Source: a virus. From it: a stretch of 64,000 bases of DNA. Shown here piece after piece: positions 3,593 to 61,031 of this stretch. A program made the position numbers and the translations under genes. The stretch lies in IMG/VR virus record IMGVR_UViG_3300022555_000024, positions 1-64,000 of that record. The stretch is one strand, 5' to 3'. Position 1 is the stretch's first letter, and the number at the start of each line of letters is the position of its first letter. The notes under the pieces were generated by a model. The model searched no databases. It saw only the letters and a program-made list of their open reading frames with translations, and was not told where the DNA came from.

Positions 3593-4645
3593 ATGTTAAG
3601 TTTCAAATCATTTATTATAGAAGGGGTTTATCTCTTAGAGGACCGACTTGATTATTTAGAAAAGAAATATCCAATTATTTCTATAAAACATGATCATTTA
3701 GCAAAATTAGAGAAAGCAAAAGATATTATACAATATTTTGCAGAAAATGCCGACCCTACATTTTCCAAGAAGTATACAGATTGGATTATTATACAATATA
3801 AAAATGGGAACGTTAGGCAAGAAGATGCACCAAGAATTCATGCGACGCTTAAGAATTTTGACAAATTTAAATCAAAATTAAAAAATAAAGATATTAATTT
3901 TTACAAACATTTAGATGAATTAGAACAACAATTGGAATCTCATCTTGGAACAAAATCTAATAGAGAGGTTGTGAAAGAAATAAAACACAAAGGAGCAGAC
4001 AAAGTTCTAGATAAAAATGATATCGTTGTTTATAAAATAAAAAATAAGGAAGCTGCCTGTTATTATGGTAAGGGAACAAAATGGTGCACAGCAGCAGATA
4101 ATTACAATAGATTTGATAGTTATAACAATAAAGGTCCGTTGTATATAATATTCGCTAAAGATATGCATGGAAAATTAGCTAAATACCAATTTCATTTTGA
4201 AACAGACTCTTATATGGATGAAAATGATAGATCTATCAACTTAGAAGATTTAGTAAAGAAAAATCCTGAACTTAAAGAAGTTCCTAATTGGCAAGGTAAA
4301 TCTTTAATATTGACATCCGATAAAAATTTTGGTAAATATTTTAATGTATTGTTAAAAAGTACACCACGTTTAACTTTAGCCGATCCAAGAACTACACAAG
4401 AATTTGTTAATAATGCATTAAATTCTCCAGATTATATGGTTAAGTTTCAGGCTCTAGATTATGATAATATATCTAAACAACAACTGTCAATGGCATTAAA
4501 TGATCCACATGAATCTGTTAGATATATGGCTATAGTTCATCCAAATATTACTAAGGCTCTTCTTTTAAGAGCTTCAGAAGATTATGATAAAACAAATAAA
4601 GATACTGCTAAAAAAAGATTATCTTCAGGAGATTTCAAACAATAA
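3593..4645 (+). CDS. Putative capsid-internal protein with a KWCT domain and C-terminal HEAT-like repeats
   Basis: Probable start MLSFKSFIIE (CTS-like); GTKWCTA motif; ALNSPDYMVK/ALNDPHESVR repeats. Confidence 0.6.
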   Translation: MLSFKSFIIEGVYLLEDRLDYLEKKYPIISIKHDHLAKLEKAKDIIQYFAENADPTFSKKYTDWIIIQYKNGNVRQEDAPRIHATLKNFDKFKSKLKNKDINFYKHLDELEQQLESHLGTKSNREVVKEIKHKGADKVLDKNDIVVYKIKNKEAACYYGKGTKWCTAADNYNRFDSYNNKGPLYIIFAKDMHGKLAKYQFHFETDSYMDENDRSINLEDLVKKNPELKEVPNWQGKSLILTSDKNFGKYFNVLLKSTPRLTLADPRTTQEFVNNALNSPDYMVKFQALDYDNISKQQLSMALNDPHESVRYMAIVHPNITKALLLRASEDYDKTNKDTAKKRLSSGDFKQ

Positions 4646-15927: not shown

Positions 15928-17256
15928 ATGAAAACATTTAACGAATTTAGAAAGGAAATAGAAATTCAGCATGCGAATATTCATCTAGATGAAGGTTTGG
16001 GTGTAGTTTTAGCTGCTACTACAGCTGCAGCTGGATATGGTGCTTATAAAATAGGTAGAGCTGCTCTTCTAGTAATTAGTGCTATAGCAACTCAATTAAA
16101 TGATATTATTGCTGCAAAATGGAGACGTGCTAATGGCGTGTCTAAAGCAGCATCACAGAAATGTAAATATGCATCTGGATTTGACGGAGGAAGCAAACAA
16201 TATAAAAAATGCATTTTAAGCGCTTATATAGATGGTGCTAAAGATAAAATAGATATTTTGATGCAGATGAAATCAGAAGTATCTAATAAATTTGATGACG
16301 AAAAAGCAAATTTATATCATAAAACTATAGAAGCAGAAATTGTAAAGCTTAAAAATAAAATTGGGAAATGGGAAGGACAAATTGAATTTATAGATTCGCA
16401 TTTACAAAAATGGGAATCAGTAAAAATCGAAGGAGATATCTTAGAATCTAAAGATCCAGAAAGTTATCAAAAAGTAACATTACCAATTCATCCCTTGGAT
16501 CTAATAGATTTTGATAAACACGTTACATCTGTATCTAAGAAACATAAAATTTCTATAGAAAATTTGTTATCAAGAATAGGAAATTTAATATCAACTTATA
16601 AAAAAAGATCAATGAAATTACTTACAGAAACATTTATAGCAGAGGCTGTAAAGGACTCTAAAAAAGGATGGTTCATAGAAGGTGTTTATTTACAAGGAAA
16701 CTTAAAAAATAAAAATGGTCGTTATTATCCAAAACCAACCTTAGATGAAGAAGTTAATCGTTATATAAAGGAATATGTAGAAAAAAATAGAGCTGTAGGA
16801 GAGTTAAATCATCCAGCTACACCTTCTATAAATTTGGATAGAGTATCACATCGTATTATTGGATTGATAGAAGATGGGAATAATTGGATAGGGAGAGCAC
16901 AAATATTGCATACTCCTATGGGAAATGTTGTGATGGGTCTTTTAGAAGGAGATGTTAAGATTGGAGTTTCTTCAAGAGGTTTAGGTTCTCTTAGAGAAAG
17001 AAACGGTCTTCATGAAGTTCAAAATGATTTTAAATTATCTGCTGTCGACATCGTGTCTGACCCAAGTGCTCCAGACGCTTACGTAAATGGTCTCAACGAA
17101 TCTGCGGATTGGATTTTTTGCGAAGACGGTCACTGTTATGTTAAACAAGACTTAGTAGAACAACACGAGAAAATTGCTAAAGAACAATATAAGTCATTAA
17201 CACTTGAACAAAAAGCATTACTATTTTCTGACTTTTTAAATAACATTAAAGGATAA
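15928..17256 (+). CDS. gp21: Prohead protease gp21 with ~228-aa N-terminal extension
   Basis: From Met at 16612: IEGVYLQ, NKNGRYYP, GELNHP, GVSSRGLGSL, DIVSDPSAPDAYV. Confidence 0.92.
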   Translation: MKTFNEFRKEIEIQHANIHLDEGLGVVLAATTAAAGYGAYKIGRAALLVISAIATQLNDIIAAKWRRANGVSKAASQKCKYASGFDGGSKQYKKCILSAYIDGAKDKIDILMQMKSEVSNKFDDEKANLYHKTIEAEIVKLKNKIGKWEGQIEFIDSHLQKWESVKIEGDILESKDPESYQKVTLPIHPLDLIDFDKHVTSVSKKHKISIENLLSRIGNLISTYKKRSMKLLTETFIAEAVKDSKKGWFIEGVYLQGNLKNKNGRYYPKPTLDEEVNRYIKEYVEKNRAVGELNHPATPSINLDRVSHRIIGLIEDGNNWIGRAQILHTPMGNVVMGLLEGDVKIGVSSRGLGSLRERNGLHEVQNDFKLSAVDIVSDPSAPDAYVNGLNESADWIFCEDGHCYVKQDLVEQHEKIAKEQYKSLTLEQKALLFSDFLNNIKG

Positions 17257-18104: not shown

Positions 18105-18107
18105 TAG

Positions 18108-18614: not shown

Positions 18615-19096
18615 AAACTTACAAATCGTTACTAGAAGAGATTAACTCCATCAAAGAAGATTCTAATTATCTTGGTGAAGAAGTATCTTTTGAATTTTTA
18701 TTTGAAGAATTAGATAGAATTGATGAAGATTCTAATCTGTCTAGTAATAATCTGTCTAGTAATAATCTGTCTAGGAATATTACCGCAATGGGAGCGGTGG
18801 CGGCGGTTGCTCTTGCTGCACAGTCTGCGCTTGTGATTAGAGGTCTTTATCGTGCTGCACATGGAGTTACTTTAAACCAGATTAACGCTTGTCATGGCGA
18901 TTCAAAGTGTATCAAAACTGCTTATATTGCTGGTGCAAGAAAGAAAATTTCTATTCTGCAACAAGCTAAAGCAAAGAACCCTACAAAATCACAGGAATTT
19001 GATGCTAAGATACAAAAATTGAATGATCGTATTGCAAAATGGTCTAAGAGTAATGCAGATGCTAGAGCAGCTATTGCGCGCAGTTATAACGATTAA
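18611..19096 (+). CDS. Putative internal head protein (hydrophobic helix plus two-Cys domain family)
   Basis: MKTYKSLLEE start; paralogous to the gp21 N-extension and to 19278-19679. Confidence 0.65.
   Translation: MKTYKSLLEEINSIKEDSNYLGEEVSFEFLFEELDRIDEDSNLSSNNLSSNNLSRNITAMGAVAAVALAAQSALVIRGLYRAAHGVTLNQINACHGDSKCIKTAYIAGARKKISILQQAKAKNPTKSQEFDAKIQKLNDRIAKWSKSNADARAAIARSYND
18733..18774 (+). repeat. 15-bp tandem repeat x3 (encodes NLSSN)
   Basis: TAATCTGTCTAGTAA repeated in frame. Confidence 0.85.
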
Positions 19097-19105
19097 TAGA
19101 AAATA

Positions 19106-19679
19106 ATGTCGTATAAAATATTCAGAGAAACAATCTTAGATGATTTAAAATATAAGGTCTATGCTAGACTGCAATTAGAGAAACAAATTATTGCATCTAA
19201 TATATTTGAAGAAAATTTAAGTGAAGATTTTATTTTTGAATCAGAAAAATTTGATGTTTTATTTGAAGATTTATTGAATGAATATAATCAAGATGAAGCA
19301 CAAAAGAGTGTTTGATATAGGTTTTCGTGCAGGCACTAATGATAATAAACATTCAGTTTCACAAAATATAAATAAAGCTACTGGAAGTAGTATTGTTGCT
19401 GTAGGAGTAGGGGTAGCTTTAATGGCACTTAGAAATCAATGGAGAAAAGCTCACGGTGTTACTAAAGATCAAATTAAGAGATGTGACGGAAATCGTTCTT
19501 GTATTCTTAAGGCTTATATTGATAGTACAAACGCGAAAATTAAAATGTTAGGACAGATGAAAACAAAAGATCCTAAAAATTCTACAGAATATGATAAAAA
19601 AATAGTAACACTTAGAAATAATTTACAAAGATATAATCAAAAGAAGTCTGTCCTTACAGCAAACGGAATAACATCTTAA
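19106..19679 (+). CDS. Putative internal head protein split into two ORFs (19106-19315 and 19278-19679), probably one frameshifted gene
   Basis: gp67-like leader and acidic spacer in ORF1; two-Cys domain in ORF2; the same architecture is intact in 18611-19096. Confidence 0.55.
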
Positions 19680-19691
19680 ACAAAAAATGTA

Positions 19692-20078
19692 ATGTCATAC
19701 AAAAATTTTCGCGATAACATTATCGCAACACTACAAGAAAAAATTCTAAAAAGATTAGAAACAGAAACACAAACCATCACTTCTAGAACTTTTAATGAAT
19801 CTGCAAAATTACCTAAACCTCGTGTAGACTTGGGTGGTTTTGAAAAATCATTCACAGACTTTCTTAATAAGCACTATCAGAAGTTAATCTCATTAGCAGG
19901 TGATATAGATAAATTGATTGCATACGTAAAAGAAGAATCTAAAGATTATTATGTATCTTCAGAATATCTAAGAAAATTTGAATCTAATGTTAGATCTCAG
20001 AAAAATTTACTTGGTGTGCAAAAATATATTACTAATATAGTTCTTAAAGGTTCCGGATTATCATTGGAGGATAAATGA
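19692..20078 (+). CDS. Putative prohead core protein with gp67-like N-terminus
   Basis: MSYKNFRDNIIATLQEKILKRLETETQTITSRTFNE is shared in pattern with 19106 and 20728. Confidence 0.55.
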   Translation: MSYKNFRDNIIATLQEKILKRLETETQTITSRTFNESAKLPKPRVDLGGFEKSFTDFLNKHYQKLISLAGDIDKLIAYVKEESKDYYVSSEYLRKFESNVRSQKNLLGVQKYITNIVLKGSGLSLEDK

Positions 20079-20731
20079 ACGAAAACAATCCATTATTAAA
20101 TTTCGAACTGATAGATGATATCAATCTGTTCTTAGAAGATCAAAAAGCAGCTCAGTTAAAGGGTTTCATTGATGGAAAGGCTGGTAAACCACAGGATTCT
20201 AAAGAGCTAGTAGGAAAAAACCCTCGTGCTTACAAAAAGGGATATGAAATAGGTTCTAATCAACAAGGAATAAATAAAACCGACAAAATCTCTAAAGAAA
20301 AAATAGAAGAATCTGTGACACGAGCAGATTGGTTAGGCGGAACGTGGGACGGTGGTACTTGGAAAGATGGCACTTGGAAAGGTGGTACTTGGAAAGGCGG
20401 TATCTGGAACGGCGGCACCTGGCGAGGCGGTACTTGGAAAGGTGGAACTTGGAAAGATGGCACTTGGTTAGGTGGAACATGGGAAGACGGAATCTGGAAA
20501 GATGGTATTTGGAGAGGTGGCACTTGGTTAGGTGGGAATTGGTTGGGTGGTACTTGGTTAAGAGGAACATGGGAAGACGGAATCTGGAAAGATGGTCTCT
20601 GGAGAGGCGGCACTTGGTTAGGCGGCGATTGGAAAGGCGGAGATTGGTGGGGTGGTTATGATAAATACGGCAGTTATCATGCTGACGGCGATTCACCGGA
20701 TAAATGGAAACTAAAAAACAAACTAAAATGA
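20075..20731 (+). CDS. Trp/Gly pentapeptide-repeat protein (G-T/I-W-x-G/D)
   Basis: Over 20 repeats ending GGYDKYGSYHADGDSPDKWKLK. Confidence 0.8.
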   Translation: MNENNPLLNFELIDDINLFLEDQKAAQLKGFIDGKAGKPQDSKELVGKNPRAYKKGYEIGSNQQGINKTDKISKEKIEESVTRADWLGGTWDGGTWKDGTWKGGTWKGGIWNGGTWRGGTWKGGTWKDGTWLGGTWEDGIWKDGIWRGGTWLGGNWLGGTWLRGTWEDGIWKDGLWRGGTWLGGDWKGGDWWGGYDKYGSYHADGDSPDKWKLKNKLK

Positions 20732-22020
20732 AAACTTATAAAGAATTCAGAGAGAGTGTTTTCGAATCTCTTAAAGAAAAAATAGCTTCTCGTTTATCAG
20801 AAGAAAAACAGATCCTCGCTTCTTCTTTAATTGGTACAGAAAAAAATGTTAATGAAGTAAAGAAAAGCACTTTGATTTCTTATATAGACAAAGCAGCTAA
20901 TACTGATAAACTTAGGGATGCACATGATGATGAATATAGTTACATTGATGACTTTTGCGGGTCTCCATATTCCTGTATCGATGGAAAAGATGGAACTTGG
21001 AAAGAAATTGAACGACTAGATAAACGACACAAAGGTATTAAAACTGCTGCTAAGAAACTTGCAAAGGGAGATTATCAGAATGAGAATCTACATGATTTTG
21101 GACCTACCGAAGAACAAACGACTAATTATTCATTAAAGAAAGGTGCTTTTCATAAATGGTTAGGAAAACCTGAAGGTGAAAAAATTACAGATGAAGATAT
21201 TCAAAGGGGTTTAGATTCTAAAGATTCTCATGTCCGTAAAATGGCTCAGTTTGCTAAAAATTCTAAAAATTGGCATAAAGAGTCAATAGATTTAGATGAA
21301 TCAAAAAGCAGTAGGATAGCTAAACTTCATGATAAGAAAAGAACATTGCAAGATAGACTTCAGAAACTTAGTAGTGGTCCTGATAGAGATGAAAAAAGAT
21401 TGCGTGTAATAAGAGATGAGATGGCGCTTATAGATGATAGAATAGATCTTTATCAAAGTCTCAAAGAAGCTTCTTCACAAGAAACTATAGATGAATTGCA
21501 TAAAGAAACTCTTGCGTCTTATGTTAAAGGTGCGTCTTATGATAGAAAAAATATAGGATCAAAACAAGTAATGGATTTTGTTATAAATCGATCTTTAGCA
21601 TCAAAGAAACAGATAGAACTTCATGCTAAAGATGTTAAAAGAAAGAAAGGTATTGCCTTAGCTGTAGATAAAATTGTAAAGAAGGATTATCAGAACGAAT
21701 CCTTAGAAACTATAGATGAAGCAAGAGAAAAGTCGTTTCATGATAAAGTGAGAGCTCACTATAAAGAAGAGATTGATTCTTATGAGGACGGTTCTTTAGT
21801 AGGTAAAGATAAAGATAAAAATACATTAGTTAGAAAAGGATTTTTCTACACGCATGGAAAAACATCTAAGGATCATGCTAATAAAGTATCTCAACGTTTA
21901 AATGATGCTGGTATAGAACATGAGGTAGTTGATCATGGAGAAATAGACAAACCTTTTAGAGGAGGATCGAATACTAAGCAAGGCTCTCATTTCTGGGTTT
22001 CTCTAAGAGATAAAGGGTGA
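20728..22020 (+). CDS. Multi-module putative prohead core/internal protein
   Basis: Start MKTYKEFRE; internal repeat NEVKKSTLISYIDKA...KGIKTAAKKLAKGDYQNE / DELHKETLASYVKGA...KGIALAVDKIVKKDYQNE. Confidence 0.7.
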   Translation: MKTYKEFRESVFESLKEKIASRLSEEKQILASSLIGTEKNVNEVKKSTLISYIDKAANTDKLRDAHDDEYSYIDDFCGSPYSCIDGKDGTWKEIERLDKRHKGIKTAAKKLAKGDYQNENLHDFGPTEEQTTNYSLKKGAFHKWLGKPEGEKITDEDIQRGLDSKDSHVRKMAQFAKNSKNWHKESIDLDESKSSRIAKLHDKKRTLQDRLQKLSSGPDRDEKRLRVIRDEMALIDDRIDLYQSLKEASSQETIDELHKETLASYVKGASYDRKNIGSKQVMDFVINRSLASKKQIELHAKDVKRKKGIALAVDKIVKKDYQNESLETIDEAREKSFHDKVRAHYKEEIDSYEDGSLVGKDKDKNTLVRKGFFYTHGKTSKDHANKVSQRLNDAGIEHEVVDHGEIDKPFRGGSNTKQGSHFWVSLRDKG

Positions 22021-22095: not shown

Positions 22096-23391
22096 ATGTT
22101 TAAAGAAACTATTATTTCAAAACTATCTGCTGGTTTAAATGGTGAAGAACTTTCACTATTTCAGGCAGCTGCAAAGTTAACAGAGGATGTGGAAGGTAAG
22201 TCTCTAGTAGAAACTCTCACCGAACTCCGTGAAAGTGGCTTAGAAGGTTATAAAGCTGTTATAGAAGAAGCAGGAGAATATCTTGATGAAGATATCAATG
22301 GCTCTGAAGAAGAAGCAAAACGTTATGGACCAGCTCCTAGTGGTTCTATAGCAAATGATTATAAAGCTCAGTATAAGAAAGAAAATGAAGATGCCGATGA
22401 AGTAGAAGAAGGACCTCAGGCAGATCAGGATGACAAAAGAAAGAAAGCAAAACCTGAAGGAGAAAAAACAAACACAACACCAGATGGATATGGTGTTGGT
22501 TCTACCGACGATGACGACGACGATAACGACGACGACAAAGAAGATGTAAAAGAAGAAAATGAATCTTATTCAAGTATTGTCAAAAGACGTCTAGATGATA
22601 TTATTAAGATTGATGAGACATATGGATCATGTTGTGATGAAAGTGAAATTAGTGTTTCTGAAGATGTTGATGCTATGTTTGCAGGAGCAGACCTAACAGA
22701 AGAATTTAAAGATAAAGCAACAATGATTTTTGAAGCTGCTGTTGCACGACAAGTAAATCTTCAGGTTTCTAATTACAAATCTCTTGTAGAAGAAGCAATT
22801 GATGATCTTGTTGAAGAAGAAGTAATAAAGGTGACAGAAGAATTGACAGGAAAAATTGATCAATATCTTGATTATGTAGTAGAAGAATGGATGGAAGAGA
22901 ATAAACTTGCTATAGAAACAGGAATTCGCACAGACGTAGCAGAAGGTTTCATCGCAGGTCTTAAGAATCTATTCATCGAGAATTATATAGAGGTACCAGA
23001 AGGAAAAGAAGATATTCTTGTTAAGGTATCAGAAGAAAAAATTGAAATAGAAGAAGAGTTTGAATTGGCTATTCAAAGAAATATTGAACTTGCTGCGGAA
23101 AACAAAGATCTTAAGAAAGGTATTATCATTTCTGAAATGACAAAGGGTCTTGCAGATACTCAAGCAGAAAAATTAACGCAACTATCAGAATCTGTAGATT
23201 TTGAAGGAACTCAGGATTTTGCGAAAAAGGTATCTCAAATCAGAGAATCGTATTTCAATACACCAGCTCCTCGTAAAAAAGAATCTATTTCTATAGATGA
23301 AGAACAATTTATCCTAGAAGAAGATTCTATGAAAGTTACAAATAAGAAGATGTCTACTTACGTTGACACATTATCAAAGTATCTTAAGTAA
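22096..23391 (+). CDS. gp22: Prohead core scaffold gp22
   Basis: LTEEFKDKATMIFEAAV, YLDYVVEEWMEENKLAIETGIR, IRESYF. Confidence 0.93.
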   Translation: MFKETIISKLSAGLNGEELSLFQAAAKLTEDVEGKSLVETLTELRESGLEGYKAVIEEAGEYLDEDINGSEEEAKRYGPAPSGSIANDYKAQYKKENEDADEVEEGPQADQDDKRKKAKPEGEKTNTTPDGYGVGSTDDDDDDNDDDKEDVKEENESYSSIVKRRLDDIIKIDETYGSCCDESEISVSEDVDAMFAGADLTEEFKDKATMIFEAAVARQVNLQVSNYKSLVEEAIDDLVEEEVIKVTEELTGKIDQYLDYVVEEWMEENKLAIETGIRTDVAEGFIAGLKNLFIENYIEVPEGKEDILVKVSEEKIEIEEEFELAIQRNIELAAENKDLKKGIIISEMTKGLADTQAEKLTQLSESVDFEGTQDFAKKVSQIRESYFNTPAPRKKESISIDEEQFILEEDSMKVTNKKMSTYVDTLSKYLK

Positions 23392-53549: not shown

Positions 53550-53579
53550 AATGGCCCTGGTGAATTCACCAGGGCCATT
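53550..53579. terminator. Perfect 30-bp palindrome, probable terminator
   Basis: AATGGCCCTGGTGAATTCACCAGGGCCATT at the boundary between replication and late genes. Confidence 0.75.
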
Positions 53580-53636
53580 GTTGTTTATTAAATAAGTCTC
53601 CGATATATCATAAATAAGTTTATAAACCTCTCTTTT

Positions 53637-53644
53637 TATAAATA
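53637..53644 (+). promoter_or_regulatory. Late promoter TATAAATA
   Basis: Consensus at the head of the 53657-61031 cluster. Confidence 0.75.
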
Positions 53645-53656
53645 TTCTTATGATAA

Positions 53657-54049
53657 ATGACAATCGAATTATTAAACGAAGATAATTTTGAACCATATGC
53701 TATGCGAAATTATCGAAATGACTTTTGTTTTGATTTAACAGAATTTCACGATGATCTTAGAAGTATACGGTACATTAAAATTTTAATTAATCGCTACAAA
53801 AATACAGGATCTTTACAAGAAAGATTAATCTTGAATCATCTTATAACTATGAGTAACGTGTTTACTGTTGATGCTGTGGTAAAAATGTTATTTTATAAAT
53901 TAGATGAAATGGATTATCCTATTCTAAAATCATTTCTATCGTACCTTAATTATATGCCTGATATAATATATGGCATTAGAGGTCATAATATATGGAGTTC
54001 AGAAATTAAAGAAGATACATTAATTACACAAAGACTAAAACAATTATGA
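53657..54049 (+). CDS. Conserved T4-like phage protein
   Basis: LNEDNF..YAMRNY, EFHDDL, ERLILNHLI..NVF pattern. Confidence 0.75.
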   Translation: MTIELLNEDNFEPYAMRNYRNDFCFDLTEFHDDLRSIRYIKILINRYKNTGSLQERLILNHLITMSNVFTVDAVVKMLFYKLDEMDYPILKSFLSYLNYMPDIIYGIRGHNIWSSEIKEDTLITQRLKQL

Positions 54050-55197
54050 CAATAAATTTCAAAAATGTCTGGGAAACTATAGACAAAAAGGCATCTGAAC
54101 CTTTACAAGAACTTTTTATAAGACCAGATGGAGATTTGGAACAGGGAGCAGCAGAAGTTGCATCAGATATAGCAGTTCTTTTTGTAAGAACAATAAGTCC
54201 TTACATCTCTAATTTAATGACGAAGAGAAGAGTTAAAAGAGAAGAAATACAGAAAGCTCATACAATATTAACAGGAGCAGAGGAACAAATAGCTACCATT
54301 ATAAACAAAAGTGTTCAAGATAGATATCAACATCAGTGCGATGTGTGGGAAACTGAACTAGAAAAACTCGAAAGAAATTTAAAAGAAAGTAAAGATGTAG
54401 ATACCCTTATTGGTAATATTACAGAATCTTTAAAAAAGGGATCTGAATATAGAACATTCTTTAAGAATGCGCTAAAAAAATTCGGTGTTGAATCACAAGA
54501 TGAATTAACAGGAGATAAAAAGAAAAAATTCTTTGATTATGTTGATTCTAATTGGGAATCTGATGACGAAATCGAAGAATCGATTTCAGAGGAATCGTTA
54601 GATGAATTATTTATGACTCCCGAAAACAAGAAAGAAGAATTAGTTGCAGATGCTGCTATATTTTTAGTTAGAGTTGTTGGACCATATATTAGTAAATTGA
54701 TTAAAGAATTTAATGAAAGACGTTGTGTTGAAAAGAAAGAATTGATTACTGCTACTAGATATCTTAATAAAGCAGAACATGAAATAGAACTGATTAAAGA
54801 ACCCGCTACACAACTCGTTTTTAAGAAAATTCTATCTAAATGGTGGTCTCAAATCAAAAAATTCAAAAATTGTGGAATTAACGAAGAATCTGGCACAGCA
54901 TCTAAAGAATTTGTTGACTCAGAGGTCGAAGGACTTACAGGCGGTGCAAAAAAGGCATACGATATGGGCTTAAACCATGGTATGAATAATAGAAAACCAT
55001 TAGATAGTCCTGACGCTTCATTTGGTAGATTTGGCGATCACTATACGTATGGTTATAATGTTGGTAAGAATCATAGAAAAATAGATTCTGATGGTGTAGA
55101 ATGGCACAATAAGCAGAAAGGTAGAGTAAACTCATCTTATAGACCACTTCAACATGAGAGTGTTGATATTATAAAATCAAAGAAGAATTCTAACTAA
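54046..55197 (+). CDS. Multi-module putative head protein with an internal duplication
   Basis: ELF...(S/A)D(I/A)A(V/I)..VR..(S/G)PYIS.L occurs twice; EYRTFFKNALKKFGV...KKKFFDYVDSNW module. Confidence 0.65.
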   Translation: MTINFKNVWETIDKKASEPLQELFIRPDGDLEQGAAEVASDIAVLFVRTISPYISNLMTKRRVKREEIQKAHTILTGAEEQIATIINKSVQDRYQHQCDVWETELEKLERNLKESKDVDTLIGNITESLKKGSEYRTFFKNALKKFGVESQDELTGDKKKKFFDYVDSNWESDDEIEESISEESLDELFMTPENKKEELVADAAIFLVRVVGPYISKLIKEFNERRCVEKKELITATRYLNKAEHEIELIKEPATQLVFKKILSKWWSQIKKFKNCGINEESGTASKEFVDSEVEGLTGGAKKAYDMGLNHGMNNRKPLDSPDASFGRFGDHYTYGYNVGKNHRKIDSDGVEWHNKQKGRVNSSYRPLQHESVDIIKSKKNSN

Positions 55198-56033
55198 TGA
55201 CTCAGTTTTTATTTGAAGGGAAATACTGGGATTTGCTATATGCATATCAATTTATTAAACGTCTTGTTATTCCATTTGATAAAACAGACGCATTTAAACT
55301 TGGTATTATAGATAAATATGGCAATAATTTAATTCCTAGAAAAGATTTCACAACAGATGAGCAAAAAAATGCATATACCTATTTTACAGTGATGGTATTT
55401 AACTTAAAGAAACTTTTAGGTAAACTTCCTGCGGGCAAAACGATGATGGCTTCTTTAATTGCAGCATTGCTTTTACTTAAAGAGGAAAAGAATAGAACTT
55501 TTCATATAGAACAAGAAAATGATGAAAAACTTCTTATAGAAAAATATAAACAAATATACGATAAAGTTCATTCATCTAATACAAATTTCATACCAATATT
55601 AACAGAGATTCATTGTCTCATTAAAGAAGATAAAATGATAAATGAAGAAGTAACTGGAGATCTGCCTACGTTACAAATACCAACTTCAACTGTTGGTGCA
55701 TTAAGAAGAAAACAGAAAAAGGATGCTATGATTAGAAGAGCTCCAGTTGTTTATGCAATACCAGAAGGCAATGGAGTCGAATCACATGGTGATTTTAAAG
55801 TTTTCACTGTTGATACCCCAACATTTATAGAAGCAAAGTCTGCAAAGAATAGATATAACAAATATGATAAATATGTAGGAAGAGCTGAGTTGGGAGAACA
55901 AATTAGATCATATGCAATTAGTAACCCAAACATGCCAGTTATCTTGAAGTGTGAGACTACAGGTCAAATATGTTTTTTAAAATATGGTAAAGTATCATTA
56001 GATTCTATAACAGAATTTAAAAATAAAAAATGA
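55197..56033 (+). CDS. Conserved T4-like protein (gp61.1-like)
   Basis: DLLYAYQFIKRLVIPFDKTDAFKLGIIDKYG; upstream of primase. Confidence 0.65.
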   Translation: MTQFLFEGKYWDLLYAYQFIKRLVIPFDKTDAFKLGIIDKYGNNLIPRKDFTTDEQKNAYTYFTVMVFNLKKLLGKLPAGKTMMASLIAALLLLKEEKNRTFHIEQENDEKLLIEKYKQIYDKVHSSNTNFIPILTEIHCLIKEDKMINEEVTGDLPTLQIPTSTVGALRRKQKKDAMIRRAPVVYAIPEGNGVESHGDFKVFTVDTPTFIEAKSAKNRYNKYDKYVGRAELGEQIRSYAISNPNMPVILKCETTGQICFLKYGKVSLDSITEFKNKK

Positions 56034-57166
56034 AATCATTTAAGACATACATAACAGAGAAGAAGGACCACCTGATAGATAAGCTAGCGATTACCGATCA
56101 CCAAAAGAAGGAACTTAAGGATTTTTTTGCAAAGAAACCAAACCTAGAGAACAAGATTGACTGGCAAAAGAAGGGTCTTGCCTTTAAGGATTTTGCGGAT
56201 GTCATGGCCACGACGAAGACCGAAAGAACCAGGATGGTAAAGAAGCAGGGCATCGCCGGGCTCAAAGATGGCAAGGATTATCTTGAACTAAAGGTACCTG
56301 CAGATTTTCCATTCCAGGCCTACATCCCACTTACCTGGGAAGCTAGCAAACTAATCGCATCAAACAAGATAGGTAAAGGTACTGCCAAGTGGTGCACTGC
56401 CCATCATAGCTTATATAAACATTGGTATGAATATGCAGATAATCTAGATGTTCTCATTTATCTCATAGGAAAAGATACCAAAATAGCAATGGTACTAGAT
56501 GGTAATTATATAGATGATGTTTATGATATAGAAGACAATACTATTGAGATTGAAGCCGAATATCGTATTCTAGTGGATATCAACAAATCTTTAATAAATA
56601 AAGCCAGAGGTATTATAGAGAAAGGTTTAAAGGACAGAGTTTGGGATGGAGGCACGTGGCTAGGCGGCACTTGGACTGGTAGATTATGGAAAGGCGGAAA
56701 CTGGAAAGATGGCAACTGGAAAGATGGAACATGGGAAGCCGGCAGTTGGGACCATGGAACATGGGAAGGTGGAATTTGGGAAGGCGGACTTTGGAGAAAC
56801 GGCACCTGGGAAAAGGGTATTTGGCAAAACGGAATTTGGAAAGATGGCAACTGGAAAGGCGGCACTTGGAAAAACGGTGTCTGGGAAGGCGGAACCTGGC
56901 AATACGGGCTTTGGCGAAATGGCATCTGGAAAGGAGGTGATTGGTGGGACGGCACTTGGTGGAACGGCACTTGGGAAGCAGGCACCTGGCAAGGCGGTAC
57001 TTGGCAAGCAGGCACCTGGCAAGGCGGTACCTGGGAAGCCGGCCTCTGGGAACGCGGAGATTGGTTGGGTGGAACTTGGAAAGGCGGAGATTGGTGGGGT
57101 GGTTATGATATAAATGGCAATTATCATGAAATGGGTGATTCACCAGATAAATGGAAACTAAAATGA
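56030..57166 (+). CDS. KWCT-domain plus Trp/Gly pentapeptide-repeat protein (paralogue 1)
   Basis: MKSFKTYITE; GTAKWCTAH; over 30 GxWxx repeats; GDSPDKWKLK cap. Confidence 0.8.
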   Translation: MKSFKTYITEKKDHLIDKLAITDHQKKELKDFFAKKPNLENKIDWQKKGLAFKDFADVMATTKTERTRMVKKQGIAGLKDGKDYLELKVPADFPFQAYIPLTWEASKLIASNKIGKGTAKWCTAHHSLYKHWYEYADNLDVLIYLIGKDTKIAMVLDGNYIDDVYDIEDNTIEIEAEYRILVDINKSLINKARGIIEKGLKDRVWDGGTWLGGTWTGRLWKGGNWKDGNWKDGTWEAGSWDHGTWEGGIWEGGLWRNGTWEKGIWQNGIWKDGNWKGGTWKNGVWEGGTWQYGLWRNGIWKGGDWWDGTWWNGTWEAGTWQGGTWQAGTWQGGTWEAGLWERGDWLGGTWKGGDWWGGYDINGNYHEMGDSPDKWKLK

Positions 57167-57735
57167 AATCATTCAAGACATTTATAATAGAATCAAAAAT
57201 AAGAAAAAGTTACTTCGATTCATCCATTCCAGTTGTCATTCTTTATAAAACAGACGAGGAATATAACATTTGGGAACCGCGTTTTAAGAAATATGGATGG
57301 GCAATAGGTATCCTAGATAAGAAAATTATTATAGAAGATGGCGAGATTATAAAAAATTTAACAAAAACACAAATCTTATTTGTAGAATCTCATGAATGTT
57401 CTCATTTTATACTTGGGGAAAAAGCTACAGAAGTAGAATGTGATTGGCTTGCTATAGCAAATCTTTGGAAAAAAGGATTTAAAAACGCAGCAAAATTAGG
57501 AATAGACACCTTTGAGGAAAGAAATAATGTACTATTTGATACTTCAGATCTTCCGGGTTATGATTCTTGGATAAAAAGAAATAAACATTTGGGCGAATGC
57601 TTTATTTTAGAATGCAAAGAAAAAAATATAGAGATATTAAAAGCTTTAAAGAATTCACAAAAATTTAATATTTACCCATCAAAAAGCACTTTAGAAAGTG
57701 CTTGGGAAATATACACAGAATCTATTATACATTAA
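57163..57735 (+). CDS. Putative zinc metallopeptidase (HExxH) with CTS-like start
   Basis: MKSFKTFIIE; ESHECSHF...EVECD. Confidence 0.65.
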   Translation: MKSFKTFIIESKIRKSYFDSSIPVVILYKTDEEYNIWEPRFKKYGWAIGILDKKIIIEDGEIIKNLTKTQILFVESHECSHFILGEKATEVECDWLAIANLWKKGFKNAAKLGIDTFEERNNVLFDTSDLPGYDSWIKRNKHLGECFILECKEKNIEILKALKNSQKFNIYPSKSTLESAWEIYTESIIH

Positions 57736-57770
57736 AATTTTAAATTTATAATACTTTAATTATATTAAAA

Positions 57771-58661
57771 ATGAAAACGTATAAACATTTATTAGAAGAA
57801 ATATCAATGTTTGAAAATAATGGTGAAGGTGGTGGAACTTGGAAAGATGGTATTTGGAGAGGTGGCACTTGGTTAGGCGGCACCTGGAAATACGGAATTT
57901 GGAAAGATGGAATTTGGAAAGACGGAATTTGGAAAGACGGAATTTGGAAAGATGGAACATGGAAACGCGGAGTATGGAGTGGCGGTACTTGGAAAGATGG
58001 AACTTGGATTAGTGGCACTTGGAAAGGCGGAAATTGGTGGGACGGTACTTGGAAAGGTGGCATCTGGGAAAATGGTACTTGGAATAAAGGAACTTGGATT
58101 AGTGGCACTTGGAAAGGTGGAACATGGTTTGACGGTATCTGGAACGGCGGAACATGGGAAAAGGGTATTTGGAAAGGTGGAACATTGGAACGCGGTGATT
58201 GGTGGGACGGTACTTGGCAAGGTGGTACTTGGAAAGATGGCACTTGGAAAGGCGGAACCTGGCAATACGGGCTTTGGCGAAATGGCAAATGGAATGGTGG
58301 CAAATGGAATGGTGGAACCTGGGAAGGCGGAACCTGGGAAGGCGGTACCTGGGAAGGCGGAACCTGGGAAAAGGGTATTTGGAAAGGTGGAACATGGGAA
58401 CGCGGTGATTGGTGGGACGGTACTTGGCAAGGTGGCACTTGGAAAGGCGGCATCTGGAAAGGTGGAACATGGGAACGCGGTGATTGGTGGGACGGTATCT
58501 GGAAAGGCGGCACTTGGGAACGCGGCATCTGGAAAGGAGGTGATTGGTGGGACGGTACTTGGGAAGGCGGAGATTGGTGGGGTGGTTATGATAAATACGG
58601 CCGTTATCATGCAGCAGGCGATTCACCGGATAAATGGAAACTAAAAAACAAACTAAAATGA
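57771..58661 (+). CDS. Trp/Gly pentapeptide-repeat protein (almost entirely repeat)
   Basis: MKTYKHLLEE followed by about 50 GxWxx repeats and the same cap. Confidence 0.8.
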   Translation: MKTYKHLLEEISMFENNGEGGGTWKDGIWRGGTWLGGTWKYGIWKDGIWKDGIWKDGIWKDGTWKRGVWSGGTWKDGTWISGTWKGGNWWDGTWKGGIWENGTWNKGTWISGTWKGGTWFDGIWNGGTWEKGIWKGGTLERGDWWDGTWQGGTWKDGTWKGGTWQYGLWRNGKWNGGKWNGGTWEGGTWEGGTWEGGTWEKGIWKGGTWERGDWWDGTWQGGTWKGGIWKGGTWERGDWWDGIWKGGTWERGIWKGGDWWDGTWEGGDWWGGYDKYGRYHAAGDSPDKWKLKNKLK

Positions 58662-58936
58662 AAACGTATAAAGAATTTCGTACAGAAATAGGGTCTAAAA
58701 CTTGGGACGATATTGCTGAAAATCCTAAATTAGTAGGACATATTCCTAGTAATATAAATAAAGAAATTTTAGATGATCCTAAAGATAGAAAATATTTGAA
58801 GTCTATTGGAAAAGCAAGGTTAAAGAAAGCAGAAGATCAATGGAAAAAGATTATAGATGATCCAGAAGAAGTAGGTAGTATTCCAAGTAACTATCCTGGG
58901 AAATTTAAAGGTGGTAATTTTGCAAACACAATTTGA
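58658..58936 (+). CDS. Small protein with CTS-like start and an internal repeat
   Basis: MKTYKEFRTE; WDDIAENPKLVGHIPSN / WKKIIDDPEEVGSIPSN. Confidence 0.6.
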   Translation: MKTYKEFRTEIGSKTWDDIAENPKLVGHIPSNINKEILDDPKDRKYLKSIGKARLKKAEDQWKKIIDDPEEVGSIPSNYPGKFKGGNFANTI

Positions 58937-60057
58937 TGAAATCATTCAAGACATACATAACGGAGAAGAAGGACCATCTTATAGATAAGCTAGCGATTAC
59001 CGATCACCAGAAGAAGGAATTGAAGTCGTTTTTTGCAAAGAAGCCAAACCTAGAGAACAAGATTGACTGGCAAAAGAAGGGCCTGGCATTTGCCGATTTT
59101 GCAGATGTCATGGCCACGACGAAGACCGAAAGAACTAGGATGGTAAAGAAGCAGGGTATTGCCGGGCTCAAAGATGGCAAGGATTATCTTGAATTGAAGT
59201 CACCTGCAGATTTTCCATTCCATGCCTACATCCCACTTACCTGGGAAGCTAGCAAACTAATCGCATCAAACAAGATAGGTAACGGAACAGCCAAGTGGTG
59301 CACAGCACACCACAGCTTATATAAACATTGGTATGAATATGCCGAGAATTTTCGTGTTCTCATTTATCTCATAGGAAAAGATACCAAAATAGCAATGGTA
59401 CTAGATGGTAATTATATAGATGATGTTTATGATATAGAAGACAATATCACCACGGTTAAACCAGAATACCATACCCTAGTGGATATCAACAAATCTTTAA
59501 TAAATAAAGCCAGGGGTATTATAGAGAAAGGTTTAAAGGACAGAGTTTGGGATGGAGGCACGTGGCTAGGCGGCACTTGGACTGGTAGATTATGGAAAGA
59601 TGGAACATGGTATCGCGGAACCTGGGAAGCCGGAATTTGGAAAGATGGAATTTGGAAAGACGGAATTTGGAAAGACGGAATTTGGAAAGATGGAACATGG
59701 GAAGCCGGCCTCTGGGAACGCGGAGATTGGTTGGGTGGAACTTGGAAAGGCGGAGTCTGGGAAGATGGTGTTTGGGCCAGAGGTAGATGGGAAAGTGGTA
59801 TTTGGCGAGGCGGCACTTGGGAAGACGGTCATTGGTATAGTGGCACTTGGATTAGTGGCACTTGGTTGGACGGCACTTGGGACGGCGGAACCTGGCGAAA
59901 TGGCAACTGGAAAGGAGGTGATTGGTGGGACGGCACTTGGGAACGCGGTACCTGGAGAGGTGGCACTTGGTTAGGCGGCACCTGGTATGGTGGTTATGAC
60001 ATAGATGGCAATTATCATGTAGCGGGCGATTCACCAGATAAATGGAAACTAAAATGA
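58936..60057 (+). CDS. KWCT-domain plus Trp/Gly pentapeptide-repeat protein (paralogue 2)
   Basis: N-terminal ~210 aa nearly identical to 56030; repeat region rearranged. Confidence 0.8.
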   Translation: MKSFKTYITEKKDHLIDKLAITDHQKKELKSFFAKKPNLENKIDWQKKGLAFADFADVMATTKTERTRMVKKQGIAGLKDGKDYLELKSPADFPFHAYIPLTWEASKLIASNKIGNGTAKWCTAHHSLYKHWYEYAENFRVLIYLIGKDTKIAMVLDGNYIDDVYDIEDNITTVKPEYHTLVDINKSLINKARGIIEKGLKDRVWDGGTWLGGTWTGRLWKDGTWYRGTWEAGIWKDGIWKDGIWKDGIWKDGTWEAGLWERGDWLGGTWKGGVWEDGVWARGRWESGIWRGGTWEDGHWYSGTWISGTWLDGTWDGGTWRNGNWKGGDWWDGTWERGTWRGGTWLGGTWYGGYDIDGNYHVAGDSPDKWKLK

Positions 60058-61031
60058 AATCATTCAAGACGTGCATAACGGAGAAGAAGGATCACCTGAT
60101 AGATAAATTGAAAATGACTGATTTTGAAAAAGCACAATTAAAAGACTTTTTCAAAAGGAAACCAAACCTAGAAAACAAGATTGACTGGCAAAAGAAAGAT
60201 CTGGCCTTTAAGGATTTTGCGGATGTCATGTCCACAACGAAGACCGAAAGAACCAGGGCAGTCAGGAAGTCTGGCATCACAGGTCTCAAGAAAGGCATAG
60301 ACTATCTAGAGGTCAAAACTCCAGCAGATTCGCCGTTCCAGGCCTACATCCCACTTACCTGGAAGCTAGCAAACTAATTGCATCCAACAAGATAGGACCC
60401 TGTACAGGTGAATGGTGCATATCTCATCATAGTGAAAACAATGATTGGAATGTATATACAAAAGAAGGAGATGTATTTATTATGCTTATAGGACAAAGAA
60501 CAAAATTAGCAATAAAAATAAATAAAAAAGATGTATTTCATGTCTGGGATAGTGATGATAATCACTTAATTAAACATAATAGAGTTTGGGACTCAAACAT
60601 ATTTGGTGATAGTGCTGGTCATCATTTAGATATAGATAAATTAATATCGGATAATAAGAATATTATAGATAATGCAAGAAAAATTGTAACACCTCAGATT
60701 AGAACAACTCCGATAAGAATTACACCTTATTTTGAGATATAACGAAGATAGTACTATCAATGAAGTAGATTATCCACGTGCAATAGAAGAATGTATAGAT
60801 CTCGGCTTGGGTTGGAGATTACCTACATATGATGAACTTAATAAATTGCGTTTGATATATCAAAATACCGATATTGTTGATAATTTTGATTTGCATCCAT
60901 ATGGTTTGTATTGGTCTTCGTCTTATGATAATAAAAGACAATCTGTTAGATGTATTATAATGCGGGGTGTAGTTGAATGGTCTAATATAACAATGGGTTT
61001 AGCTAGAGTAAGAGCAGTAAGAAGTGTCTAA
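60054..61031 (+). pseudogene. KWCT-family paralogue 3 with a C-terminal DUF1566/Lcl-like domain, broken into three ORFs
   Basis: ACCTGGAAG at ~60360 versus ACCTGGGAAG in paralogues; the shifted frame reads EASKLIASNKIGPCTGEWCISHH into 60482-60742; 60732-61031 has GWRLPTYDEL, YWSSS, VRAVR. Confidence 0.65.

Follow-up and report, generated by a model that had tools for sequence, protein, structure and literature searches.

The T4 internal protein IPI* inhibits GmrSD, and T4 Alt ADP-ribosylates RNA polymerase. IPI, IPII, IPIII and Alt all begin with a 10-residue leader that has the same key positions as the one described here, while the mature internal proteins are unrelated and have only this leader in common. 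In T-even phages their genes lie in clusters, differ from phage to phage and look dispensable, and T4 encodes a protease of the gp21 type and a scaffold of the gp22 type. Experiments on the capsid-targeting sequence of IPIII established that positions 4 and 7 control targeting while positions 8 and 10 control processing, and leaders of this kind are confined in T4 to internal proteins (PMC9026906). Reviews have already proposed the capsid-targeting sequence as an evolutionary device to load diverse proteins into heads (PMC9026906, PMC3012670). Here we describe genes of an uncultured T4-like marine phage, a T4-like myovirus, that resemble the T4 system in each of these features of leader, protease, scaffold and gene clustering, and that share no sequence homology with IPI-III or Alt apart from the leader. 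The proposed principle is that of the T4 internal proteins, whereas the leader-tagged family of N-domain and repeat proteins appears to be new.

A row of leader-bearing genes

The window analysed is 64,000 nucleotides long, the first part of a 112-kb record (IMGVR_UViG_3300022555_000024) that is a linear metagenome assembly, 62% complete. A tightly packed row of + strand genes begins at 53657. Upstream, a terminator-like hairpin (53550..53579, + strand; 13-bp stem with 8 G-C pairs and a T-rich tail) closes the preceding unit, and a T4 late-promoter-like box, TATAAATA (53637..53644, + strand), lies 13 nt 5′ of the ATG at 53657. No + strand terminators were found inside the row, in agreement with a preliminary description that placed it behind one late promoter. 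The word TATAAATA is also found 5′ of the sheath, protease and scaffold genes and, at 58753, within the gene at 58658; its enrichment in the window is only mild (25 found, 15.6 expected). The surroundings of the array are replication genes; it lies between helicase and primase, outside the tail module.

The leader-bearing cluster had been placed at 53657-61031; the leader is present from 56030 onwards. The three genes before that point (all + strand) lack it: a DUF7207 gene (53657-54049), an ORF of 383 aa (54046-55197) and an ORF of 278 aa with a phrog_18642 match (55197-56033). Six adjacent + strand genes, 56030-61031, start with the leader, 10 residues of the pattern MK(S/T)(F/Y)K..(I/L).E. 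Paralogue 1 (56030..57166, 378 aa) consists of the leader MKSFKTYITE (56030-56059), a KKDH...WCT N-domain that ends near 56630, W-x-x-G-x repeats (about 56639-57124) and the conserved cap GGYD..G.YH..GDSPDKWKLK. It is followed by a small HExxH (HECSH) protein, a candidate zincin peptidase (57163..57735; leader MKSFKTFIIE) with native AT-rich codon usage (GC3 0.20) and a match to Peptidase_M48 at E 0.033 only, and by a W-x-x-G-x repeat-only protein (57771..58661; leader MKTYKHLLEE) with the same C-terminal cap, so that the interleaving reported earlier is real. Next come a protein of 92 aa that contains an internally duplicated motif (58658..58936), whose leader MKTYKEFRTE departs from the pattern by an R at position 8 in place of I/L, paralogue 2 (58936..60057, 373 aa), again composed of leader, N-domain, W-x-x-G-x repeats and cap, and paralogue 3 (60054..61031), a chimera broken by two frame changes.

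Six-frame translation of the 112-kb record gave 13 matches to the strict leader pattern, all at + strand ORF starts, and three more close variants. At least 16 ORFs in 112 kb, in two arrays, bear the leader, a repertoire much larger than that of T4. Within the leader, positions 4 and 7 hold aromatic residues, position 8 holds I/L and position 10 holds E, and these four coincide with the positions that are functional in the T4 capsid-targeting sequence. The leader is common to unrelated proteins, and near-identical leader DNA lies 5′ of unrelated genes. In the structure models it is disordered (pLDDT 57 and 43). Leaders in other phages are lineage-specific and likewise common to adjacent unrelated genes.

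The genome also encodes head machinery of the T4 type. A prohead protease (15928..17256, + strand; Peptidase_S77 at residues 233-390, E 3.7e-36) has a 230-residue N-terminal extension that itself opens with a leader-type sequence, MKTFNEFRKE. The T4-type capsid assembly scaffolding protein (22096..23391, + strand; T4_CASP, E 5.4e-62) is the protein on which a capsid-targeting leader would be expected to dock, and small ORFs between protease and scaffold also bear the leader. Together with the matched T4 positions, the presence of protease and scaffold supports the earlier assignment of the leader as a putative capsid-targeting sequence.

A modular protein family

The N-domain (KKDHLI...WCT) spans 190 residues and is common to the genes at 56030, 58936 and 60054, as first proposed: the N-domain of paralogue 2 has about 91-92% and that of paralogue 3 has 77% amino acid identity to paralogue 1. 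It has no Pfam family; its AlphaFold model is confident (pLDDT 93.5) and alpha/beta, with no fold match in the PDB. PcfJ-like proteins (PF14284) resemble it weakly in fold (BFVD E 1e-2 to 1e-1), and a language model placed it near a cluster with 26% PcfJ members (Atlas score 0.89). The Pfam PcfJ model, searched against this genome, finds nothing even at E<=10. The domain is basic (pI 8.4-9.4), and the mature proteins are of about 40 kDa with pI 6.5-8.9.

A search for the family returned 534 representatives at E<=1e-3, hence at least 534 clusters, from uncultured viruses, and tandem arrays also occur in independent records, complete ones among them. The domain lies at the N-terminus in 163/168 members. 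It is preceded by leaders of 5 to 33 residues that nearly always end in (L/I/F)-x-E: the residue before the domain (P1) is E in 151/164 members, and P3 is L, I or F in 154 of the 164. Among 10 related virus records a single one gave a Peptidase_S77 match, and neither S77 nor a gp23-like capsid gene was found in two complete family-bearing genomes (139.8 kb and 329 kb). Because of this, (L/I/F)-x-E may belong to the domain and not represent a gp21 site; alternatively, other proteases may share the specificity. C-termini in the family are varied, with LRR, BspA-LRR or ankyrin repeats in relatives, and are mostly unrecognised; none of the C-terminal modules shows a recognisable enzyme or inhibitor signature that would point directly to the anti-defence or host-takeover activity suggested earlier.

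The Trp/Gly pentapeptides noted at the ends of two paralogues (56030 and 58936) are tandem repeats of 15 nt, or 5 aa. W-x-x-G-x units number 180 over five proteins of the genome, and 175 of them have G at +3. The predicted fold of the repeats is a mildly acidic beta-solenoid (pI about 5) whose best fold matches are the passenger beta-helices of Ag43 and TibA (Z 14.9 and 14.1). These fit better than the pentapeptide-repeat proteins Np275/276 (Z 10.7) and AlbG (Z 9.8), although that group (A(D/N)LXX; Qnr, MfpA, AlbG, Np275/276) shares the strict 5-residue period. W-x-x-G-x units differ from the pentapeptide-repeat consensus in having Trp for Leu/Phe and Gly for Ala, the surface is not strongly DNA-like, the module has its own conserved cap (GGYD..G.YH..GDSP.KW), and Pfam pentapeptide models give no match to the repeats at E<=0.1. 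Elsewhere the W-x-x-G-x module is joined to at least five other N-domains. Modularity thus runs both ways, the N-domain occurring with many C-termini and the W/G module with many N-domains, which bears out the earlier idea of exchangeable domains; unlike in the T4 internal proteins, either half of the mature protein can be exchanged.

Polymorphic toxins and effectors (Rhs, CDI, T6SS) likewise attach interchangeable C-terminal modules to a conserved N-terminal region, and share with this family tandem paralogues, decaying copies and recombination at conserved junctions. In contrast to those systems, the variable modules here are repeats or binding folds rather than recognisable toxins, no immunity genes are apparent beside the family, the N-terminal domains are exchangeable too, and delivery would be by phage head ejection.

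A distant relative and its homologue in PA5oct

The gene at 3593..4645 (+ strand), between gp13-like and gp14-like neck genes, begins with the leader MLSFKSFIIE, contains a GTKWCTA motif and is helical at its C-terminus. It had been taken for a distant family member ending in HEAT-like repeats; the HEAT match is weak (E 0.034), and by sequence the relation to the 56030-type domain is weak too (hhalign E 7e-4, probability 27%). Its protein is 35% identical over 213 residues (E 1e-26) to EST35_0205 (QCG76086.1) of the jumbo phage PA5oct, whose predicted structure is also matched by the N-domain model (BFVD E 1.1e-3). EST35_0205 and its relatives in CcrBL9 and SCTP-2 (phrog_28193, phrog_17056) belong to jumbo phages, have other C-termini and are distant from the 56030-type domain; the EST35_0205 leader ends L-Y-E and is accompanied by a GTRWCTAADN motif, both of which resemble the window family. 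EST35_0205 is annotated 'structural protein, ESI-MS/MS', with its place within the virion not given, and this annotation of a distant homologue is the sole experimental support for packaging.

Mosaicism, composition and a candidate exchange point

The cluster is not unique: a second array at 107.7-112.3 kb of the record contains three further paralogues (108766, 110094 and 112107), the last with an in-frame TAG. The suggestion of a recombination-shuffled set is upheld by mosaicism among the paralogues (PHI permutation p<0.0002, 0/5000 permutations reaching the observed value; 466 of 1275 site pairs incompatible) and by close relatives, in which N-domain and repeat identities are uncoupled. The repeats of paralogues 1 and 2 are 64% identical.

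Paralogue DNA had been described as more GC-rich than its surroundings. Array GC is indeed 0.43-0.47 against about 0.30, though not over all of 60054. GC3 is 0.40-0.52 in the GC-rich paralogue genes and 0.15-0.23 elsewhere, including the major capsid gene. Since synonymous sites and the N-domain are also GC-raised, the excess is not merely due to Trp/Gly codons; synonymous GC about twice that of the genome suggests recent import. No GC3 excess was seen in relatives.

In paralogue 3 the first 310 nt are GC-rich and partly 99% identical to the copy at 110094. A -1 shift follows at 60361-60363 (GG, against GGG in other paralogues), the remaining N-domain, to 60742, is AT-rich and diverged, and a second shift lies within 60717-60739, at a T run. 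The Lcl_C/DUF1566-like end noted earlier is present as a tail (60732-61031, + strand), with E 9.4e-6 and 26.3 bits, below the Pfam cut-off of 34.9; it occurs as a fusion only in this broken gene, and no intact fusion of N-domain and DUF1566 was found among homologues.

A conserved junction (57118..57192, + strand) comprises the cap end ...GDSPDKWKLK, a stop overlapping the ATG, and the leader DNA ATGAAATCATTCAAGAC. Further copies lie at 60009-60083 and, beyond the window, before 110094 and 111230, where unrelated genes follow. The stop/start arrangement makes it a candidate site for the exchange of cassettes.

Proposed function and alternative explanations

We infer that the leader-bearing genes probably encode cargo proteins of the phage head, injected with the DNA. 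The leader would dock each protein on the scaffolding core during prohead assembly, and the S77 prohead protease would cleave after Glu10, freeing the mature protein inside the head, from which it would exit with the DNA upon infection. The mature protein would have two parts, the alpha/beta N-domain and an exchangeable C-terminal module (Trp/Gly beta-solenoid or DUF1566-like), and its most likely role would be to interact with the host early on, by means of the variable binding module. The family would have grown by gene duplication into tandem arrays and diversified by gene conversion between paralogues and by cassette swaps at the junction of repeat-cap stop and leader start. The GC-rich copies probably came recently from a higher-GC phage and were then amplified, and one may have replaced the 5′ end of an older native copy, breaking it to give paralogue 3.

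Several observations argue against head cargo. Unlike the T4 internal proteins, the family reaches phages without a recognisable T4-type head, as in the related records mostly lacking S77 and the two complete genomes also lacking a gp23-like capsid gene. The near-neutral, two-domain proteins are unlike the small basic T4 proteins, and the C-terminal modules are devoid of enzyme or inhibitor signatures; beta-solenoid, LRR, BspA-LRR and DUF1566 modules are typical of surface adhesins. A conserved N-terminal anchor with a variable binding C-terminus is the usual layout of receptor-binding proteins. The proteins could then be fibres, whiskers or decoration/adhesin proteins on the virion exterior, the N-domain anchoring them to neck, tail or capsid and the repeat binding surfaces of the host or the environment. 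The Ag43/TibA-like repeat, the BspA-LRR, LRR or Lcl_C of relatives and the detection of the PA5oct homologue in virions accord with this, as do the position of the 3593-type member between neck genes, at the edge of the pelagimyophage 'host recognition cluster' (PMC7029224), and the family arrays in L009 and L023, which adjoin the same neck-gene type. We nevertheless consider an external location unlikely: the prohead protease, the small ORFs between it and the scaffold gene, the HExxH protein and other small unrelated proteins bear the same leader, the main array is not in the tail module, and no trimerisation or fibre signature was seen.

Packaged proteins might also serve only assembly or DNA condensation, as accessories of the core or scaffold like T4 gp67, gp68 and IPIII, with no host role and with diversity arising by drift in multicopy genes that are dispensable. 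For T4 IPII and IPIII no target in the host is known, and head assembly is affected by IPIII (PMC9026906); the N-domain is basic, and two copies are pseudogenised (60054 and 112107). Such a limited role is quite unlikely, as scaffolding needs no rigid binding-type repeat modules and the N-domain is kept over at least 534 clusters from unrelated phage lineages while C-termini are swapped, which fits selection on a C-terminal binding target. It is distinctly improbable that the leader is a translation-initiation region or recombination linker on cytoplasmic proteins of late infection. Conservation at the DNA level, starts overlapping the upstream stop (ATGA) as in translational coupling, the exchange junction and the scarcity of S77 in related records would suit this, yet MKTYKEF.., MKSFKTY.. 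and MISFKSF.. differ in DNA and in sequence while keeping the peptide pattern and the distance to Glu, head-module proteins show the same pattern, the experimentally defined T4 positions are matched, and family leaders vary in length while nearly all end in hydrophobic-x-E. Finally, collapsed or chimeric paralogue joins in a linear, incomplete metagenome assembly could in part have generated the mosaics, frameshifts and GC jumps, given long near-identical stretches among paralogues and one frame change exactly at a composition breakpoint. This is very improbable, because 1-nt indels do not arise from graph-based mis-joins, the AT-rich genes with leaders that lie in between are in good frame, their stops and starts overlapping, independent records, including complete ones, hold tandem arrays, and proteins identical or 96-99% identical to that of 56030 occur on several other contigs of up to 121.8 kb.

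Gene row and head machinery

The row of genes at 53657-61031 is closely packed on the plus strand. Upstream of it lie a strong, perfect 13-bp terminator-like hairpin (53550-53579) and, 58 nt after the hairpin and 13 nt before the first ATG, the octamer TATAAATA (53637). The octamer recurs directly 5' of the genes for sheath, protease and scaffold, which makes a T4-like late promoter in front of the row, as proposed in the preliminary description, plausible, although in such AT-rich DNA its enrichment is mild (25 observed against 15.6 expected). No plus-strand terminator was found inside the row. As a separate observation, hairpin and octamer together (53550-53644) form a composite terminator/promoter unit that recalls PeSL cassettes, to which modular shuffling in T4-type phages has been attributed (PMC2839356, PMC4122927).

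The ten-residue leader MK(S/T)(F/Y)K..(I/L).E is absent from the first three genes of the row (DUF7207, a 383-aa ORF and a 278-aa ORF belonging to phrog_18642), so the leader-bearing set is narrower than the cluster first delimited. It begins each of the six ORFs that follow: 56030 and 58936 (both MKSFKTYITE), 57163 (MKSFKTFIIE), 57771 (MKTYKHLLEE), 58658 (MKTYKEFRTE) and 60054 (MKSFKTCITE). The interleaved proteins therefore do carry leaders, as had been claimed, although that of 58658 departs from the pattern with R at position 8. The protein encoded at 58658-58936 has 92 aa and an internal duplication (P.LVGHIPSN / P.EVGSIPSN). The 57163 protein contains the HExxH motif as HECSH, matches Peptidase_M48 weakly (E 0.033, 14.5 bits, below the cut-off of 20.3) and has Atlas neighbours in which 15-57% of members are assigned to M48 or M78; on its sequence it is a candidate zincin only.

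The record, of which the window is the first 64 kb, is 112,339 bp long, linear and 62% complete (CheckV) and has a GC content of 0.316, and its sole DNA-level match among GenBank phages covers 71 nt of Pelagibacter phage HTVC008M. It encodes a T4-type terminase, tail sheath, portal, prohead protease, scaffold and gp23-type capsid protein. Both the gp21-type prohead protease (Peptidase_S77, E 3.7e-36, 124.9 bits, cut-off 27) and the gp22-type scaffolding core (T4_CASP, E 5.4e-62, 210 bits) are thus present. Unlike T4 gp21, which lacks a long N-terminal extension, the protease (15928-17256) has one of 230 residues that starts with the leader MKTFNEFRKE, resembling a capsid-targeting sequence (CTS), and includes a hydrophobic stretch. 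Between protease and scaffold (17637-22020), several ORFs without an assigned family start with leader variants, among them MSYKSLLEE (18108), MKTYKSLLEE (18611), MSYKIFRE (19106) and MSYKNFRD (19692); in position they resemble T4 gp67/gp68, and they are probably prohead core proteins.

Likeness of the leader to a capsid-targeting sequence

In a six-frame translation of the whole record the strict leader pattern was matched 13 times, in all 13 cases at an ORF start on the plus strand, and close variants occur at 3593, 107708 and 111667; a loose regular expression proved unspecific and was not used. Leader-type starts were also seen on the ORFs at 84577, 107708, 111230 and 111667, on the protease at 15928 and on the small ORFs between protease and scaffold. 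The T4 leader sequence is MKTYQEFIAE, and the leaders found here are aromatic at positions 4 and 7, with I/L at position 8 and E at position 10. The first 10 residues of T4 IPIII are enough for packaging, with residues 4 and 7 serving targeting and residues 8 and 10 processing, and gp21 itself has an LIE motif close to its N-terminus (PMC9026906). MKSFKTYITE, MKSFKTFIIE, MKTYKHLLEE and related leaders agree with a CTS in length (about 10 residues) and at these positions, apart from the R at position 8 in 58658. In the DNA, ATGAAATCATT(C/T)AAGAC stands before the HExxH gene and the N-domain genes, and likewise before the gene at 111230, which is unrelated. The leader is also the least confident portion of both AlphaFold models.

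The N-terminal domain defines a large family

The three paralogues (56030, 58936 and 60054) share an N-terminal domain (KKDHLI...WCT, hereafter KKDH-WCT), as first described, with 91% and 77% identity to the 56030 copy for 58936 and 60054, respectively. At E<=1e-3 an exhaustive HMMER search retrieved 534 cluster representatives, of which 313 also pass E<=1e-10, so that the family comprises at least 534 clusters at 50% identity. It has no counterpart in Pfam, PHROGs or NCBIfam, and tblastn of the domain against 50,697 GenBank phage records gave zero matches. Related loci were retrieved with a 16-sequence alignment; the same search with a single protein as query returned nothing.

Of 168 members examined, 163 have the domain at the N-terminus, behind a leader of variable sequence that is 5-33 residues long. 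Cys122, Asp83, Ser106 and Lys151 of the domain are invariant. More than 90% of these leaders end in L/I/F-x-E (P1 is E in 151/164 and P3 is L/I/F in 154/164), and adjoining unrelated ORFs at related loci carry the leader type of their own lineage.

Structural comparison, one of the checks proposed at the outset, yielded a confident AlphaFold model of the domain (pLDDT 93.5, pTM 0.81) but no convincing counterpart in the PDB, where the best Foldseek match had E 0.38 and the best VIA match a Z score of 4.7, under the noise level of the tool. GNAT-like matches at Z ~4 were dismissed as chance. In BFVD the model matched uncharacterised viral proteins (E down to 1e-7) and the PA5oct 'structural protein' (E 1.1e-3); its matches to PcfJ-like proteins were weaker. 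Membership in PcfJ was rejected, since the Pfam model (PF14284) has no match in the whole record even at E<=10.

Repeat modules and exchange of both protein halves

The proteins encoded at 56030 and 58936 continue into tandem repeats with a 15-nt period that encode W-x-x-G-x units, which bears out the description of Trp/Gly pentapeptide repeats. Five proteins of the genome contain 180 such units with a W-W spacing of 5; Gly stands at +3 in 175 of them, positions +1, +2 and +4 are variable, the consensus is W-[KE..]-[GD..]-G-[TI..], and a conserved cap (GGYD..G.YH..GDSPDKWKLK) was recognised. The repeat region of 56030 is confidently predicted to form a beta-solenoid (pLDDT 91-98). In fold it comes closest to Ag43b (Z 14.9, with an rmsd of 2.7 Å for 172 residues) and TibA (Z 14.1); the pentapeptide-repeat proteins Np275/276 and AlbG score Z 10.7 and Z 9.8. 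These matches to the predicted structure support the solenoid class only, a right-handed quadrilateral beta-helix being one candidate form. The repeats share a tandem five-residue period with the pentapeptide-repeat proteins of the Pfam Pentapeptide clan, but do not follow their A(D/N)LXX consensus with its central Leu/Phe, and no Pfam family matched them at E<=0.1. Weak matches in a PDB sequence-profile search, to the SV2C pentapeptide domain (E 0.05) and the RSP1 MORN repeats (E 1.5e-4), were read as likeness of G-x-W motifs and dismissed as homology. A DNA-mimic role is unlikely, as the repeats have a pI of ~5 with nearly balanced charges.

Across the family the tails have a median length of 241 residues. 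W-x-x-G-x repeats make up 27 of 168 and DUF285/BspA-like tails 10, while 12 members have no tail or one of <60 residues and 119 tails are unclassified, so that the label 'binding repeats' fits the recognisable minority only. Pfam matches in the 78 members scanned were to DUF285, LRR_5, LRR_4, LRR_8, FNIP and ankyrin.

Conversely, the W-x-x-G-x module was found in 342 proteins at E<=1e-5, and 83 of 101 newly retrieved matches follow N-domains other than KKDH-WCT. These comprise at least five families, many with leader-like starts and none with a Pfam family. Both halves of the protein are thus exchangeable. One such N-domain, E.IYGN.A.VYHRT...GF.PG.G.MYG.GFYSTY (P0183, P0189, P0193, P0201 and other related proteins; loci L021:6779-8005 and L009:2458-2691), is often encoded next to KKDH-WCT genes. 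Its R / S-T pattern recalls ADP-ribosyltransferases such as T4 Alt, a possible identity that found no support in Pfam or PDB sequence searches.

Recombination and a probable recent import

A second array lies outside the window at the contig end (G000:C1:107708-112339). It contains two intact N-domain/W-G genes (108766 and 110094), a further N-domain copy at 112107 with an in-frame TAG, at about 112240, where its paralogues read TGG, a gene at 107708 encoding the leader MISFKSFITE and a 353-aa protein of phrog_4687, and two mutually paralogous, leader-bearing genes of 146-147 aa (111230 and 111667). Mosaicism is evident in the five N-domain DNAs that can be aligned: blocks that follow one another back incompatible groupings, the four-gamete test fails for 466 of 1275 informative site pairs, and the observed clustering was reached in 0 of 5000 permutations, in agreement with the proposal of a recombination-shuffled set. 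N-domain identity does not go together with repeat identity in close relatives sampled elsewhere (88% and 99% for P0006; 85-87% and ~60% for P0007-P0012). The 45 nt 5' of 57163, 60054, 110094 and 111230 are a conserved repeat-cap end whose stop overlaps the next ATG. Different genes come after this cap/leader junction of ~75 nt, which is probably a point of exchange.

The paralogue DNA is indeed richer in GC than its surroundings. GC3 is 0.40-0.52 in N-domains and 0.40-0.47 in repeats, against 0.15-0.23 in the rest of the genes, among them those for portal, capsid and helicase and the interleaved leader-bearing ones. A pure Trp/Gly codon effect was ruled out because GC3 and the N-domain are raised as well, and expression-linked codon bias because the major capsid gene has a GC3 of 0.23. 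Nor is the bias family-wide, as relatives in other phages match their own background; together with the anomaly here, this composition argues for recent import from a phage of higher GC, followed by amplification.

The third paralogue, 60054, is broken. One G is lost from a GGG run at 60361-60363, within the most conserved stretch of the family, after which the ORF runs on in another frame to 60742, and a second shift within 60717-60739, round a T run, is needed to reach the Lcl_C/DUF1566-like tail. The tail, in which a DUF1566/Lcl-like ending had been proposed, has a GWRLPTYDEL motif and matches PF07603 at E 9.4e-6, but the match (26.3 bits) is below the Pfam cut-off of 34.9 and covers profile positions 44-117 only, and no intact fusion of the N-domain to a DUF1566 tail was found. 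The only longer relatives of the tail are cellular DUF1566 proteins (PF07603, E 6.5e-5). The tail ORF has no ATG start, which makes a former fusion the natural reading. The first frame change coincides exactly with a drop in GC3 from 0.52 to 0.17, and the 5' part of the gene shares 92-99% identity with the copy at 110094. It follows that an older native gene was overwritten at its 5' end by conversion from a GC-rich copy and was broken in the process.

Probable head cargo and alternative readings

On balance we consider it rather probable that the leader-bearing proteins are phage head cargo. The leader would load them into the head and be removed, and the proteins would be ejected into the host with the DNA. 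A distant PA5oct homologue was found in virions by ESI-MS/MS. The mature parts have no sequence homology to T4 IPI, IPII, IPIII or Alt and belong to no family of Pfam, PHROG or NCBIfam; the T4 internal proteins themselves have only the leader in common, so homology of mature parts does not define the functional class. An external location on the virion may also be considered, given that the recognisable C-terminal folds are typical of adhesins too. Polymorphic toxin systems combine a variable C-terminal toxin with an adjacent immunity gene, whereas no toxin family was found in the C-termini, the recognisable ones being repeats, and no pattern of paired small immunity-like genes was seen.

That all phages bearing the family are T4-like was not borne out, as Peptidase_S77 was matched in only one of ten related virus records, and neither S77 nor a gp23-like capsid gene was found in two complete genomes with family members, so that the family is not confined to T4-like phages. 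One of these two, the 139.8-kb phage of loci L009-L012 (IMGVR_UViG_3300033141_003726 and relatives), which has direct terminal repeats, encodes five tandem N-domain/W-G genes, one of them split, and a W-G protein with another N-terminus. The conserved Glu may have a structural role, or a preference for Glu may be common to other head proteases; such a preference has been noted for phiKZ and SPN3US (PMC9026906).

That a short leader loads diverse, fast-evolving proteins for delivery is an established principle in T-even phages (PMC3012670, PMC9026906). What is new here is how large and broad the family is, together with its N-domain of uncharacterised fold, the class of solenoids built from W-x-x-G-x units, the two-sided modularity and the explicit dynamics of junction-mediated exchange and gene conversion. 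A bolder and distinctly tentative reading is that a combinatorial cargo system, so far undescribed, is widespread in large marine phages. In it, a head-targeting leader specific to the lineage would stand in front of an N-domain drawn from at least six unrelated types (KKDH-WCT, 'IYGN..YHRT', 'NPELNPK', 'PSEFR' and others), and to this would be attached a slender repeat module of one of many kinds, among them the new Trp/Gly pentapeptide beta-solenoid class. Shuffling of the parts would take place at conserved junctions, and the proteins would be injected along with the DNA to bind and neutralise host factors; the bias towards solenoids would reflect the need to pass the tail channel.

Proteins injected with phage DNA act ahead of any phage gene expression, and those of T4 include an anti-restriction inhibitor and an RNA-polymerase modifier; to our knowledge, almost nothing is known of such proteins beyond a few model phages. 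The locus draws attention to a large family without annotation, of at least 534 clusters at 50% identity, among abundant marine phages that are uncultured. Its predicted fold is confident and has no solved equivalent, it includes a new class of repeats, and the way in which it diversifies can be seen. Should packaging be confirmed, leader and Glu junction would provide a sequence rule predicting head cargo in metagenomes, the tails would be natural binding modules under arms-race selection, and the leaders would be candidates for loading foreign proteins into non-model phages.

A divergent member between the neck genes

The gene at 3593, previously described as a more distant member of the family, is situated between gp13-like and gp14-like neck genes. 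Its product is 35% identical (E 1e-26) to EST35_0205 of PA5oct, annotated in GenBank as a structural protein (ESI-MS/MS); 93 virion-associated proteins are reported in the PA5oct paper. Sequence ties it only weakly to the 56030-type domain (hhalign E 7e-4, with a probability of 27%), and the link passes mainly through this PA5oct protein, a structural neighbour of both. Upstream of the gp13-like gene, a 521-aa ORF (345-1910) assigned to no PHROG family is rich in Gly/Thr/Ser, has a GC content of 0.42-0.44 and, with its repeated 'GNVGIGT.GP' motifs, has the look of a fibre protein.
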